Assembly (NCBI GenBank): GCA_049325595.1
Contig: JBMOLF010000015.1
Location: forward strand, 64,001-128,000
DNA: 64,000 nucleotides
Reading direction: 5' to 3'
Source: Candidatus Babelota bacterium
GTDB lineage: Bacteria > Babelota > Babeliae > Babelales > Vermiphilaceae
Positions 21,463 through 63,012 of the stretch are shown piece by piece; the first letter of the stretch is position 1; the number at the start of each line of letters is the position of its first letter. The notes beneath the pieces were generated by a model, which ran no database searches, was not told the DNA's origin, and saw only the letters and a list, made by a program, of their open reading frames with translations. Position numbers and translations under genes: made by a program.

Positions 21463-22293
21463 TTAATCTTTTAATTTTTCTAAATATTTTATAGCTTCTT
21501 GATTGCCACTATCTTTGATCCATTCACGGAGTGTTTTACGATCTAGACTCCAGCTAAATTCCAGTGGTTGATTATTAATAAAATTTGAGCCAAATATTTT
21601 TTGTACCGTATCAATAATTAAAGCAAGAATTTGTGTATTGGAGGTATTCTCTACACCTAAATAGATTTTATATTCATCTTCGATTCCTAAGTAGAAAACT
21701 TTGAGGAGCTCATTTCCAATTTTATTAGTGAAGGTAAATCGATTATTGATAAAAAAATTATTAAGGGCACCTAAAATTATGGCACTTACTTCTTCGCTTT
21801 TGCATAAAATTCCTTCATTGGAAGTTGATACATTGAATAATGACAAGTAATTTTTCAAATCTTGTTTTGTTATTGTCTGCTTTTGATTTTTTATGCTATT
21901 TATTAAACTATTAATTTGACCTTTTGCATCCGGAATCTTTGCAAAATGAACTAATGCTTCTTTTAAAATTCTTAAAGTTTTTTGTTGAATGTTGGGATTA
22001 TCATAATTACCAGAAGCCAATGCTGTTAAAGAAAGATCAAATTTTTGATTGAGTATTTTTTTAATAGATTCTTTGTTTTCTTTTATATAGTGAGCGATTG
22101 CTTTATTAACTTGTGCATAGTTACTTAAAAGAGTAAGTGCTTCATCACGAGTGCTTGATGTATTTAATATTTGTTTTATTATTTCTGTAGTTTGTAACTC
22201 ATAAGGCAAATCAGTAAATTTTAGTAGGTTTTTTTCCATAGTGGAAACATCCATGACTATCAATGAGCCTAAGAGTAAATAATATAATTTCAT
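21463..22293 (-). CDS. Secreted protein with an N-terminal F-box-like motif
   Basis: Signal peptide, then MEKN...FTDLPYELQTTEIIKQIL; paralog of 28558-29373. Confidence 0.65.
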   Translation of the reverse strand: MKLYYLLLGSLIVMDVSTMEKNLLKFTDLPYELQTTEIIKQILNTSSTRDEALTLLSNYAQVNKAIAHYIKENKESIKKILNQKFDLSLTALASGNYDNPNIQQKTLRILKEALVHFAKIPDAKGQINSLINSIKNQKQTITKQDLKNYLSLFNVSTSNEGILCKSEEVSAIILGALNNFFINNRFTFTNKIGNELLKVFYLGIEDEYKIYLGVENTSNTQILALIIDTVQKIFGSNFINNQPLEFSWSLDRKTLREWIKDSGNQEAIKYLEKLKD

Positions 22294-22563
22294 ACCAGGT
22301 CCTTCAGAGGTATTTATTTTCTTAGTATATATCCACTAATATACCAAAATAACAATTCAAATTGTAATATTTTTTTGTTTAGATTGCATAGATATAAATA
22401 AACTAACTTATTAAAATGCATCAGAAGTAATTTTTTGTAAAAGAGATTCAAATTTTTTAACTAAATTTTTGTTTTAATCCTAAAACTGAATATGCGGTTG
22501 GGATGCGTTATAAAGTAAATCCAAACTCAATTTTTCCGTTCCTGAACGCGTCTATTAAGTCTA

Positions 22564-22651
22564 GCTAGTCTTCGTTCTCAAGAACTTTGTCTAGCATTCT
22601 TCTACGTTAAAAACTTCGTAGGACAAGAGCCATCAAATTTAAAAGCGATTT
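22564..22651 (+). repeat. 88-bp direct repeat A, copy 2
   Basis: 5 mismatches versus 17113-17200, two of them compensatory (GCCAG/CTGGC to GCTAG/CTAGC). Confidence 0.9.
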
Positions 22652-22949
22652 TGTAGAAATACTGACTTTTTTATTGTTTTCTTTTTAATGCGCATGGAAT
22701 TTTTTGCGTTTACATTTCATAATAAAAAAATTGAATCTATTCTGCAGTAACTAGTTCAGAGGCTCATTCATAGCTTTTCCAAAATAATAATTATATGTAG
22801 CTTAATCCTTAAATAATTTAAGCTACACTAATTTTAAGTGGGAGGTTATGATAGCGATTTAAATTAGAAAAATAGAAATATATAAATAATAATGTACAAA
22901 AGAAGAGCTCTAATATAATTAAATCTTTTTTATCATATATCTGTTTTTA

Positions 22950-23513
22950 TTACTGAAGTGCTATGCGATAGAACAAATATGGAAGTTTATATGATAAGAT
23001 CATTGCAAAATATATTTTTAAGAAAAGACCAAGCATAGAAATATTAAATGGCCAATTTAATGCCCGTATTACTGCTATAAGACATTTTTGAAACCATGTG
23101 TTGGCCAGCTCTTTAGGACTCACTAAATCTTTTTTGCTCGGAAACGCACATATGCCTATAATTATACCCAGGGTGTATAATGCCAAGCTCGCCGTGTAAT
23201 ATATGGATGACGTTGCATAATTAAAATTGTTGCCTAAAGTGTAAATGGTACTTACAACATGTGGAAAGGTTAAAAACATGCAAATTAAAGAATTTACAAA
23301 AAATGGTGCAATACCTATCAATAGATCAATGTAAAATTTTTCATTTTTTTCATGTATTACATAGCCGCTGGCCTCTGAGCTAAAGCTTAAGTAGCGAACT
23401 TTGAGAACTCGGACATTAAAAATATCGCAAAAAAAACGATGTGCGATTTCATGAATTATAATGCCGGGACTGGTTATGATTGTTATTGCATGTGGTGGAA
23501 TCCAAATTATCAT
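22950..23513 (-). CDS. Membrane zinc metalloprotease-like protein (M50-like/DUF3267-like)
   Basis: PGIIIHEIAH HExxH motif, GYV, IAPFF, PSxxD; several TM helices. Confidence 0.65.
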   Translation of the reverse strand: MIIWIPPHAITIITSPGIIIHEIAHRFFCDIFNVRVLKVRYLSFSSEASGYVIHEKNEKFYIDLLIGIAPFFVNSLICMFLTFPHVVSTIYTLGNNFNYATSSIYYTASLALYTLGIIIGICAFPSKKDLVSPKELANTWFQKCLIAVIRALNWPFNISMLGLFLKIYFAMILSYKLPYLFYRIALQ

Positions 23514-23515
23514 AA

Positions 23516-60877: not shown

Positions 60878-60880
60878 CTT

Positions 60881-61141
60881 TTAAAAATTTTTATGGAATG
60901 AAGAACGAGTCAATTTTTGATGCGTGCTAGTTATTTGCTTTTCTTTGAGTGGGCTTTGAATTTTAGAAATGTCTGATGAAAGTTGCTCGTTAAGTAACGG
61001 CTGTTTAAAGCCTGTTAGCGCTTGGTGATAGAGTAACTGGAGAAAAAAGTTCGCCTTTGTGTGCTCAAAATTTTTATCCATGCCCCATAAAGCTGGTGTA
61101 ATGAATAATACTCCTGCCGCAAAAATAATATTTTTTTTCAT
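60881..61141 (-). CDS. Small secreted hypothetical protein
   Basis: Signal ending LWG-MDK. Confidence 0.5.
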   Translation of the reverse strand: MKKNIIFAAGVLFITPALWGMDKNFEHTKANFFLQLLYHQALTGFKQPLLNEQLSSDISKIQSPLKEKQITSTHQKLTRSSFHKNF

Positions 61142-61337
61142 GAAAAGCCCCTATGAGTTGTTTTTTATGTGTGCTGCTACTGTTTTACCAGAATTAAAAA
61201 AAATGAGAACAGGTCGATTAAAAAATGTTTAAAAAAATTAATTGGTAACAACAGGAATAAACAAAGACTTTTTTATTTTCAGTTAATCAATGACCGTCTG
61301 CCCAGTAATGCCAACTTAATATTTCAAAACAAAATAT

Positions 61338-61988
61338 CTATTTTAAAATATGAGTATAATTAGGAATTTTTACTACATAACCAACATATGGGCCTTCTAA
61401 ATCAGTTGGTTGATCACCCACACATGCAACAATATCATATCCTTGGGATACTAACTGTGCTCGCTGGGATGATTTGTATTGAATGGCTTTTAAATGCTTT
61501 TCATTATGTGATTTGCAAATTAAACGATCAAATTTAACATATCCATGCAATGCAAGATTTTGTATGGTTGCATCATATAATTCTTCGCTTCTGCTTGTTA
61601 GAAAGAATATATGATAGTTATTGTTAGCACAGTAATCATACAATTGCTTTACTGCTACAATAGTTGGCGCATTTGCGCGAGTAACAAATTCATTAAATAA
61701 ACGATCTCCGCAATAATCACAAAAATCTAACGTTTTTAAATGGTAAAAAGCTAATAATATCGTATCGTCAACATCAAAAATAATAGACTTTGAATCGCTG
61801 AAATTATCTTTGTTAGATTCTAAATAATCAATAGCTTGATCTATAATTTGTTTGCATTCTTGTTCAAAGGCGCCAGATTCATAATGTTCAATTACCTGGT
61901 CCTTTGCTATGCGTAGATTAAGGGGTTGTGCAATGGTGAAGGGTGTAAAGAAAACAGAATAGATTAAATAAAACGCTAATTTTTTCAT
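61338..61988 (-). CDS. HAD-superfamily class B acid phosphatase, exported
   Basis: IIFDVDDT, FLTSR, YKS, VGDQPTDL, KIPN. Confidence 0.85.
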   Translation of the reverse strand: MKKLAFYLIYSVFFTPFTIAQPLNLRIAKDQVIEHYESGAFEQECKQIIDQAIDYLESNKDNFSDSKSIIFDVDDTILLAFYHLKTLDFCDYCGDRLFNEFVTRANAPTIVAVKQLYDYCANNNYHIFFLTSRSEELYDATIQNLALHGYVKFDRLICKSHNEKHLKAIQYKSSQRAQLVSQGYDIVACVGDQPTDLEGPYVGYVVKIPNYTHILK

Positions 61989-62115
61989 AATAAGCCCTCA
62001 TTTTTTAATGCATTGGGTAAATAAGAACCTATGATAAATATAATAACATTCTTAAGCAAAAAAAATAAGGGAACTGGTCAAAAGCTCCCTATGATCGAAT
62101 TGATAATTGGACTAT

Positions 62116-63012
62116 CTAACTATTAGATGCAAATTGTTTGTAGTATGACAATTTTGGTAAAATACTTTTAATTTCTTTGATCCGCTTGAAGGGTGCAAGA
62201 ATTTCTTTTTTATTGTCAAAAAACTTCTGCTTTTTTTCATTTATATGATATAAGCATATGCGATTGTGAGCTTTTAAATGTTGTTCGATTTGTTCTATTT
62301 CTTTTACCGATAAATAGCCATATTTGGTGATATCTTCTTTTCTTTTTTGCTCTCTTTTTTTTGTGTCGCTAGCGCATACAAAGCAATTGGTGGCATATAG
62401 TCCTTCAGTGTCAGCGCGGTGCTCACAGTAATAACTATATTTTGCTGTATAATAGACCGATGATAATGCTATGATTATTGTCGCTGCATCAATTACATCA
62501 TGTTTGTTACAAAACGTTTTTGCGATTTGATTTCCTGCGGTAGCTATCAATGCCCATGTACCTAAAGCAACTACCTTACTCGGTCCATCAGCGTATTTGA
62601 TATGAACTGCTTCATGATGCAATACATGATTTCTTGAACCATAAGATTGATTATTGTATGAATTCTCATTAACGTAAATACTACCGTTTGTAGCATGAAC
62701 TAAACCAGCAAATTCTACATTATTAGCTCTTTTAATTGGTACCGTTAATTTAGGATGAGTTCCTAAATCAATTTGAGCTTGTTTGCCTAAATGTTGATAT
62801 TCTGCCGATGCTGTTCCATGATTTATTCTGAGAATCTTACCTAATAACCAATCAAGGGGGCGAGCTAAATATTTTACTACTTGTGCTGCATACGAATTAG
62901 TAAAATAAGCTTGAAATCGATCAAAGCGATTTGGTTTATACAAATCACTTGCTGTTGCATTGGCCATGCCCAAAGCAAGAACAATTCCTAATAATGCTGA
63001 TTTAAACTGCAT
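62116..63012 (-). CDS. Secreted zinc metalloprotease-like protein (M48-like)
   Basis: LHHEAVH, two TM helices, EHRAD. Confidence 0.65.
   Translation of the reverse strand: MQFKSALLGIVLALGMANATASDLYKPNRFDRFQAYFTNSYAAQVVKYLARPLDWLLGKILRINHGTASAEYQHLGKQAQIDLGTHPKLTVPIKRANNVEFAGLVHATNGSIYVNENSYNNQSYGSRNHVLHHEAVHIKYADGPSKVVALGTWALIATAGNQIAKTFCNKHDVIDAATIIIALSSVYYTAKYSYYCEHRADTEGLYATNCFVCASDTKKREQKRKEDITKYGYLSVKEIEQIEQHLKAHNRICLYHINEKKQKFFDNKKEILAPFKRIKEIKSILPKLSYYKQFASNS

Follow-up and report, generated by a model that had tools for sequence, protein, structure and literature searches.

Dependentiae are widespread parasites of protists that apparently send hundreds of proteins to their hosts by the Sec pathway and a type II-like system alone. 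The main text on Chromulinavorax destructans reports signal peptides on 44% of coding sequences and names a type II system as the sole secretion system seen (PMC6561590); that on Babela massiliensis reports signal peptides on 79 of 126 ankyrin proteins and, again, type II as the sole system seen (PMC4378268). Neither main text, supplements aside, mentions the residue after the cleavage site, and the word 'methionine' occurs 0 times in them (PMC4378268, PMC6561590). Here we describe a two-residue signature at that place, Met followed by Glu or Asp directly behind predicted Sec signal peptides, in a bacterium of the same phylum. It was noticed in a stretch of 64,000 nucleotides from Candidatus Babelota bacterium (the window; contig JBMOLF010000015.1, C15:64001-128000 in our numbering), for which a first-pass annotation had listed 14 open reading frames (ORFs) with a second Met at the likely cleavage site. 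We followed the signature through the source genome (G000; 1.29 Mb in 24 contigs, 35% G+C, 95% complete) and through its relatives.

In outline, the export signal of these proteins is that of canonical Gram-negative Sec secretion. Both have a basic n-region, a hydrophobic core, small residues at -3 and -1, a favoured acidic residue at the second mature position (+2, or P2') and one signal peptidase of the LepB type. The difference lies at the first mature residue (+1, or P1'). Among 307 verified Gram-negative signal peptides, the main text of the survey gives P1' as Ala in 41.7%, Gln in 12.1%, Asp in 7.2% and Glu in 6.2%, with Met unlisted, and P2' as Asp in 17.3% and Glu in 16.9% (PMC2638155). 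In the source genome, Met accounts for 20% of P1' residues and Ala for only 5%, and the Met is tightly coupled to Glu or Asp. Thus, going by the published frequencies, an acidic +2 is ordinary; what stands out is the Met at +1, together with the loss of Ala from that position.

Residues behind a cleavage site can set the compartment of a protein. Under the '+2 rule' of E. coli lipoproteins, and in the surface export signal of Bacteroidota, this is done by one or two post-cleavage residues, which are often acidic. Those proteins, however, carry a lipid-modified Cys at +1 and are sorted by Lol or surface-export machinery, whereas the signature described here has Met at +1 and no lipobox. The ankyrin and CaaX effectors of Legionella share with proteins of the source genome ankyrin repeats and CaaX-like C-terminal ends, which are sensible only in a host cell, but they are type IV secretion substrates without signal peptides. 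In Plasmodium, PEXEL processing leaves a mature x-E/Q/D N-terminus that is required for export. PEXEL, RxLR and Y/F/WxC (the subject of PMC2886064) are likewise short motifs near the cleavage site of fast-evolving secreted effector families; they belong to eukaryotic secretory pathways with known processing enzymes, whereas the present motif consists of two residues at +1/+2, in only about a third of the repeat-domain secreted proteins.

Signal peptides were called with a home-made predictor that scores the best 8-residue hydrophobic window, the charge of the n-region and the residues at -3 and -1, and ignores +1. A loose version flagged 769 of 1402 ORFs, and the commonest +1 residue was Met (120). 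The counts below refer to a strict set of 391–392 proteins of at least 80 aa with a charge of at least +1, strong hydrophobicity, a site at residues 14–30 and no later membrane span. The Sec-type features (basic n-region, hydrophobic core, small -3/-1) hold for this set by construction, and some of its members, CTP synthase and sugar epimerases among them, are cytosolic proteins called in error, so that the non-Met class is diluted.

Met stood at +1 in 79 of the 391–392 strict signal peptides (20%), against a background of 1.6% in mature parts, which is a 12.9-fold enrichment (binomial p 2.6e-61). At each position from +2 to +8 it occurred only 3–12 times. The residue behind it was Glu in 42 cases, Asp in 18, Gln in 5, Asn in 3 and something else in 11; small residues that permit removal of the Met were scarce (Gly 2, Pro 1 and Val 1 of 79). 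An acidic +2 was found at 60 of the 79 Met sites compared with 102 of the 312 sites with another +1 residue (p 5e-12). Thus, the +1/+2 enrichment suspected from the window holds genome-wide. The first-pass annotation had also proposed a class with Ser at +1; such sites are present in the window, but their enrichment across the genome is weak (44/391, 1.8-fold over background). Gln reached the same 1.8-fold (35/391), Asn occurred 29 times and Ala 21 times (not enriched). Weighted by cluster, the motif reads Met, then Glu (48%) or Asp (25%), with a weak Lys at +3 and a weak Asn at +4. Sites without Met show the same E-K-N trend behind the cleavage site in weaker form, and Met sites therefore seem to represent a single general template in its strong form.

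Met is rare at +1 elsewhere, as the first-pass annotation had stated. The same script returned 1 of 31 in 450 kb of E. coli K-12, the single case being LamB, whose true cut we take to lie two residues beyond the predicted site; it returned 0 of 7 in loci of other phyla and 0 of 1 in six streptococcal loci. Paralogy was ruled out as the cause: when the mature parts minus their first four residues were grouped by all-against-all BLAST, the Met +1 cases fell into 65 of 288 clusters, 49 of them singletons. A DNA-level motif was rejected because the choice among synonymous codons at -1, +2 and +3 does not depart from the genome average. A shared leader cassette was rejected as well, since blastn comparison of 5' regions produced no more than short stretches of low complexity around the ribosome-binding site and ATGAAAAAA, in Met and non-Met genes alike (among 51 cross-cluster pairs, 23 contained no Met gene, 23 one and 5 two). 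The sites do not fit a type IV prepilin-type (class III) signal, because the hydrophobic stretch comes ahead of the Met, polar residues open the mature part (M-E/D-K-N) and Glu shows no peak at +5. Nor do they fit a lipoprotein signal, +1 being Met and not Cys; for the six of the 79 proteins with Cys at -1, a lipobox reading with Met at +2 is possible.

Orthologues were compared between the source genome and G107, a relative of the same genus of which 800 of 1222 kb were analysed (622 reciprocal best hits). A Met lay within -3 to +6 of the G107 orthologue's own site for 16 of 23 Met +1 proteins and for 19 of 116 other signal-peptide proteins (odds ratio 11.7, p 8.5e-7). Where both partners had strict sites, Met was present in both in 7 pairs, only in the source genome in 7, only in G107 in 8 and in neither in 81; the +1 residue was identical in 7 of 14 pairs when it was Met and in 24 of 89 when it was another residue, while +2 to +7 were identical in 23–33 of 103. 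The proteins concerned change quickly. Median identity to the G107 orthologue was 38% for Met +1 proteins, 57% for other signal-peptide proteins (p 0.0009) and 73% for ORFs outside the strict set, and the share with Met was 34% below 40% identity, 13% at 40–60% and 6% at or above 60%. Among orthologues of a PLD-like protein (25–54% identity), a signal peptide followed by Met was found in 4 of 4 by reading and in 3 of 4 by the predictor; for a double-HIT protein the figures were 4 of 5 and 3 of 5. Linker lengths vary in both series, and one site was re-read in each (in G072 and G109), where the predictor had placed it a few residues upstream. Such deep series are few because the PLD-like protein occurs in only 4 of 151 genomes searched and a family with CaaX-like ends (37998, 38415 and 40206 in Table 1) in only 3 of 151, the source genome counted. 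Between the 200-kb samples of other relatives, only 12 homologue pairs aligned at their N-termini, too few to use. On this comparative evidence, we conclude that Met-Glu/Asp at P1'–P2' is retained by selection.

The signature is unevenly distributed. Nine relatives pooled gave Met +1 in 71 of 502 signal peptides, with Glu, Asp, Asn or Gln next in 52 of 71. Individually, the counts were 35/221 in G107; 9/46, 12/48, 6/54 and 4/60 in 200-kb samples of G005, G001, G040 and G027; and 2/20, 3/19, 0/27 and 0/7 in smaller samples of G018, G020, G008 and G009. The coupling of Met to an acid was replicated in G107 (21/35 vs 49/186) and in G005 and G001 together (13/21 vs 16/73). An acid followed none of the 6 Met in G040 and one of the 4 in G027, and the signature proper is therefore placed in G000, G107, G005 and G001, which span two families of the order. 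The signature is real and lineage-restricted, and as far as the literature was searched, supplements excepted, it is undescribed.

The secretion machinery resembles that of the described Dependentiae. A search of the source genome for type II secretion or type IV pilus-like components found two adjacent secretins, GspC and two GspE/PilT-type ATPases; VirB4, FHIPEP and VipB were not found in this 95%-complete genome. These findings agree with the picture published for Babela and Chromulinavorax, so the Sec-dependent route itself is not new. Of the earlier proposal of an undescribed Sec-dependent effector route, the Sec-type signal peptides stand, but Sec plus type II has already been published for the phylum. 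The two secretin genes lie about 4.5 kb apart in each of 10 genomes checked (C9:48860-53923 in the source genome). A link between signature and secretins was rejected, since all 10 have the pair; it is found in G008 and G009 (together 0/34 Met) and in G027 just as in genomes rich in Met.

Signal peptidase I is represented in the source genome by one canonical gene, a Peptidase_S26 ORF of 329 aa (76 bits), in which GSMETTM and KRVIGIPGD were recognised by eye as the Ser and Lys boxes. Two genes for this peptidase are present in G005 (L284 and G005:C1:288217-289140), with 62% and 53% identity to the one in the source genome. An insertion of about 35 residues occurs in the peptidase of G000, G107 and G005 and not in that of G001, G008 and G009.

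We infer that cleavage falls before the Met and that the Met acts at the cleavage or export step. The explanation we lean towards, while stopping short of calling it probable, is a shifted, lineage-specific optimum of that step, which fast-evolving secreted proteins have tracked. We propose that the single signal peptidase I would cut an ordinary Sec signal peptide directly before the Met, which would become P1' of the mature protein, and that Met-Glu/Asp at P1'–P2' would be a selected, protein-level feature of the cleavage region in the source genome and some relatives. Met, and less often Ser or Gln, would replace the usual Ala at P1', and the acidic P2' would be the ordinary Gram-negative preference. 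Fast-evolving secreted families would follow the optimum, and old envelope proteins would retain their inherited sites. Exit afterwards may be by the Sec plus type II route proposed for the phylum.

Several points weigh against a shifted optimum. We know of no biochemical reason why Met should suit P1', and genomes rich and poor in Met encode almost the same catalytic stretch in this peptidase, although the six genomes compared are too few for a verdict on such a link. All cleavage sites are predictions from the home-made predictor. Met sites in the source genome go with Thr or Cys at -1, an aromatic residue at -2 and a shorter signal peptide, all significant, but this upstream context did not replicate in G107 or in G005 and G001 together and was rejected as a defining feature. 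The comparison with periplasmic housekeeping proteins, which the first-pass annotation had suggested, gave Met +1 in 0 of 18 conserved envelope or periplasmic families, although these share the same peptidase. The families, whose grouping is our own and post hoc, are BamA, TamB, secretin, GspC, MlaD, amidase, ZnuA, two S49 peptidases, M16, M3, PS decarboxylase, solute-binding protein, OmpA, thioredoxin, SOD, carbonic anhydrase and PEBP. Large secreted families can also be poor in Met (collagen-like 1/22, a 13-member family 1/13, AAA 0/9, glycosyltransferases 0/9, outer-membrane-like proteins 0/5); these count for little because paralogues are not independent draws.

A second explanation, which we hold to be possible but rather less likely, is that cleavage exposes Met-Glu/Asp as a tag for address or maturation. 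It would be read by the type II system, during vesicle loading or by a host enzyme, and it would mark a host-directed subclass. What the carriers are speaks for this. They are the fastest-evolving secreted proteins by the median identities above, they include none of the 18 envelope families, and the residue after their Met is Glu, Asp, Asn or Gln in 68 of 79 cases, with a similar bias in the relatives; moreover, the type II-like system is the only one found in the source genome. A Pfam scan covered 75 of the 79 Met proteins and 248 of the 312 others (20 short proteins and 44 more were left out). At E<=0.001, 53 of the 75 had no family, and the rest were rich in domains such as Ank (8, seven of them at E<=1e-5), LRR (2), WD40, TPR, GH1, PLD-like, HIT, EndoU nuclease, peptidase M15 and a chagasin-type inhibitor. 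Families rich in Met were an Ank family related to that of 21463 (4–5/6), an LRR family (3–4/5) and the CaaX family (3/3). CaaX-like ends occur in 5 of 391 signal-peptide proteins and in 0 of 554 other ORFs of the source genome, and all five proteins have Met +1 (CTIL, CAIL and CTIQ in the window, CIIL and CLVI at C9:59385 and C15:170568). The confinement of these prenylation-box-like ends to signal-peptide proteins fits delivery to the host cytosol.

However, the Met does not follow such proteins consistently. Only 11 of 29 signal-peptide proteins with repeat domains (Ank, LRR, WD40 or TPR at E<=1e-5) have Met +1, and the 248 scanned non-Met proteins contain 12 Ank, 3 LRR, 2 WD40 and 1 Sel1/TPR. 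In G107, G001 and G040, the CaaX-ending signal-peptide proteins have Met in 0 of 5 cases, their +1 residue being Glu, Ser, Gly, Gln or Asp. Thus, many carriers do have Ank, LRR or WD40 domains or a C-terminal CaaX, of use in a eukaryotic cell, as the first-pass annotation had it, but the Met is no general mark of host-directed proteins. Further, G008, G009 and G027 share the paired secretins with the Met-rich genomes, the motif is just two residues long, and we know of no reader protein for Met-Glu/Asp. Met-Asp/Glu/Asn/Gln are NatB-type N-termini, but NatB works on nascent chains, which weighs against a tag acquired by cleavage. The related idea of a host-stabilising N-terminus is not supported as it stands: Gln and Asn, which are destabilising N-termini in eukaryotes, are also common at +1 (35/391 and 29/391). 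A more specific form, in which a Met-Glu/Asp tag would define an effector subclass in certain amoeba-infecting Dependentiae as the counterpart of the PEXEL-made N-terminus, is an analogy that we consider doubtful, and less likely again.

It is unlikely that the Met is a relic start codon, left without a present role when a signal peptide was added directly upstream of the ATG of an old ORF. Two cases look this way, in that the Met +1 aligns with the start Met of a paralogue without signal peptide (HIT, offset 0; HAD-like, offset 2), and the carriers are enriched among poorly conserved genes. But native starts differ from the Met sites: ME or MD opens 42 of 512 proteins without signal peptide (8%), compared with 60 of 79 (76%) in which Glu or Asp follows Met +1. 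GTG or TTG is the start codon of 48 of 392 signal-peptide genes, yet neither is over-represented at +1 (TTG 4 of 20 Leu codons, against 17% elsewhere; GTG 0 of 15 Val codons). Chance upstream extension was rejected with 51,100 shuffles based on non-exported genes, which gave 0.06 expected cases per genome compared with 79 observed. In these shuffled upstream regions, 177 signal-peptide-like extensions arose and only 6 placed the site exactly before the native Met, whereas the real Met is confined to +1. Finally, the Met was retained in orthologues at 25–54% identity whose linker lengths had changed, and where just one partner of an orthologue pair has the Met, it can be either of the two (7 and 8 pairs).

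We find it very unlikely that the +1 ATG is a second start in use, which would also initiate a cytoplasmic copy without signal peptide. A Shine-Dalgarno core is lacking in roughly every second gene (it is present in 51/127 and 214/391), and the codons behind the +1 ATG are A-rich, both of which would suit such starts. A core 4–18 nt upstream, however, was found for the first Met in 214 of 391 genes, for the +1 ATG in 0 of 79 and for other internal ATGs in 56 of 1573. Real N-termini have Lys as second residue in 18% and Glu in 4.7%, unlike the Met +1 sites, and a cytoplasmic nuclease or phospholipase would presumably do harm. With neither a Shine-Dalgarno core nor a GTG/TTG excess, and with a second-residue composition unlike real starts, an alternative internal start signal was rejected.

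The same Shine-Dalgarno counts support the upstream Met as the true translation start, and together with the retention of whole signal peptides in orthologues, the shuffles, the blindness of the predictor to +1 and the near absence of Met in the controls (E. coli 1/31, other-phyla loci 0/8), they leave virtually no room for an artefact in which the second Met is the real start behind AT-rich in-frame upstream sequence, or in which cleavage calls are biased, even though the genome is AT-rich, the predictor is home-made and two or more of the Met +1 calls (VQS-MHA and AGA-MQA) are probably mistaken. Whatever probability these explanations leave belongs to causes that we have not thought of.

The signature is selected, marks the fastest-evolving secreted families and varies between lineages, and it therefore offers a handle on how proteins are chosen and delivered. 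It can be used to rank candidate host-directed proteins, and it lets one ask directly whether a mature N-terminus carries information. It can also probe the drift of signal peptidase specificity between phyla, which is relevant to predictors trained on model bacteria. Should the signature amount to no more than a shifted cleavage preference, it would be a modest finding, though one that still helps annotation. The GltX of the source genome has 'Candidatus Dependentiae bacterium Noda2021' as its closest named record (69% identity). Strain Noda2021 grows in Vermamoeba (PMC8812299), so N-terminal proteomics of a close relative is feasible.

All 14 ORFs of the first-pass annotation read as claimed, with a start codon, a basic n-region, an uncharged hydrophobic stretch, Ala, Gly, Ser or Thr at -1 and then ATG (Table 1). 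The +1-blind predictor picked the identical site in 11 of them and another in 26552, 28558 and 38876. The window is rich in the signature (12 of 27 strict signal peptides). Ser-class sites predicted in the window are GA-SHE, DA-SQS, HS-SEN and TA-SDL; for HA-SW and SA-SEN, Ser is at +1 only at alternative sites chosen in the first-pass annotation.

Table 1. Proteins of the window with Met at or near the predicted cleavage site. A hyphen within a motif marks the cleavage site; positions are those of the window.
Feature	Position	Strand	Site	+1 ATG	Remarks
276-aa secreted helical-repeat protein	21463..22293	-	MKLYYLLLGSLIVMDVST, then MEK	22237-22239	No Pfam hit
254-aa secreted protein	26552..27316	-	LVS-MEK	27260-27262	Related family with Ank_4 hits; predictor preferred AST-QL; G107 orthologue LIA-MEK
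Secreted paralogue of 21463	28558..29421	-	IFS-MGV	29320-29322	Predictor preferred SMG-VW; paralogues and database homologues IFG-MD
80-aa truncated 21463-family member	35040..35282	-	SYA-MEK	35223-35225	Adjoins IS200-type transposase gene
125-aa secreted protein	37998..38375	+	TYA-MDN	38052-38054	End CTIL (CaaX-like)
133-aa paralogue of 37998	38415..38816	+	LCA-MEQ	38463-38465	End CAIL
Secreted protein with C-terminal DnaJ domain	38858..40036 (listed as 38876)	+	INA-MFT	38939-38941	Site ambiguous; predictor TVA-RR
126-aa paralogue of 37998 and 38415	40206..40586	+	SYA-MET	40260-40262	End CTIQ; G107 orthologue SYA-MDN
Secreted protein, no known family	46596..47348 (listed as 46626)	+	INA-MNK	46683-46685	
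Glycoside hydrolase family 1 protein	49161..50738	-	AQG-MEY	50664-50666	G107 orthologue (79% identical) retains Met behind hydrophobic stretch (ARP-MD), Pro at -1
172-aa secreted protein	57681..58199	+	SYG-MGS	57747-57749	
115-aa secreted protein	59994..60341	+	SWT-MDQ	60045-60047	
164-aa secreted protein	60383..60877	-	TNA-MEQ	60815-60817	
86-aa secreted protein	60881..61141	-	LWG-MDK	61079-61081	
Chagasin-type peptidase inhibitor (I42)	1737..2099	-	TTA-MYG		Further predicted Met +1 case, outside the range of the first-pass annotation; Met not conserved, G107 orthologue AQS-IQ
Secreted Cys/His-rich protein	53034..54221	+	VQS-MHA (predictor)		Probably a false Met +1 call; MHA-SW likelier, G107 orthologue AHA-SWH

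In the 21463 family, Met follows the predicted signal peptide in 6 of 8 members, and in 8 of 8 when the next-best site is counted. All six database homologues of the 21463 protein (6/6) have a signal peptide followed by MD. An F-box, looked for in the 21463/26552 family, was not confirmed. There was no Pfam hit for one, and a profile of the 21463 family searched against the PDB matched ankyrin repeats only and no F-box. Foldseek with a model of the 21463 family (mean pLDDT 81.5) returned nothing at E<=0.001, and a wide structural search returned only generic helical repeats with Z<=8.2, in which residues 1-77 were barely tested.

Two NUDIX genes with near-identical C-terminal halves (17273-17680 and 24701-25099) bracket about 7 kb. 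Between them lie a toxin-antitoxin-like Gp49/HTH_37 pair (17863-18646), a 378-aa ORF without a family (18762-19898), an IS4/5-type transposase gene (20319-21113) and the first Met +1 gene; this stretch looks like an insertion between duplicated gene copies. The IS200-type Y1 transposase gene (34549-35007) has on one side an ORF for the C-terminal part of an ABC ATPase (a fragment, 33886-34425) and on the other the truncated 21463-family member of 80 aa.

Some signal peptides of the window precede domains that are normally intracellular: SET (24140-24679), MutS domain V (31834-33534), DnaJ (38858-40036) and histone deacetylase (63032-64000). A second MutS-like protein with a signal peptide is encoded elsewhere (L048:9469-11238). 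At 52415-54221, two adjoining proteins have a common C-terminal Cys/His-rich stretch that appears RING/U-box-like by eye, with no such Pfam hit. Four tandem Cys-rich proteins of 543-666 aa, part of a 5-member family, occupy 2119-9953; three of them (2119-3750, 5800-7764 and 7953-9953) belong to the strict set and were scanned, with no Pfam hit. Judged by composition only, they are probably outer-membrane proteins.

Outside the window, the source genome encodes three tandem signal-peptide proteins of the Acetyltransf_3 (RimJ/RimL-like) type (L049:34-1508 and L080:6822-7589; C12, about 37.6-39.9 kb) and two further GNATs with signal peptides. Secreted N-acetyltransferase-like enzymes are of interest given the N-terminal signature. 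A 22-member signal-peptide family lies largely in tandem arrays on C1 at about 7.7-56 kb (L070, L046 and L081); most scanned members have collagen triple-helix repeats, and several have a BclA-type C-terminal domain.

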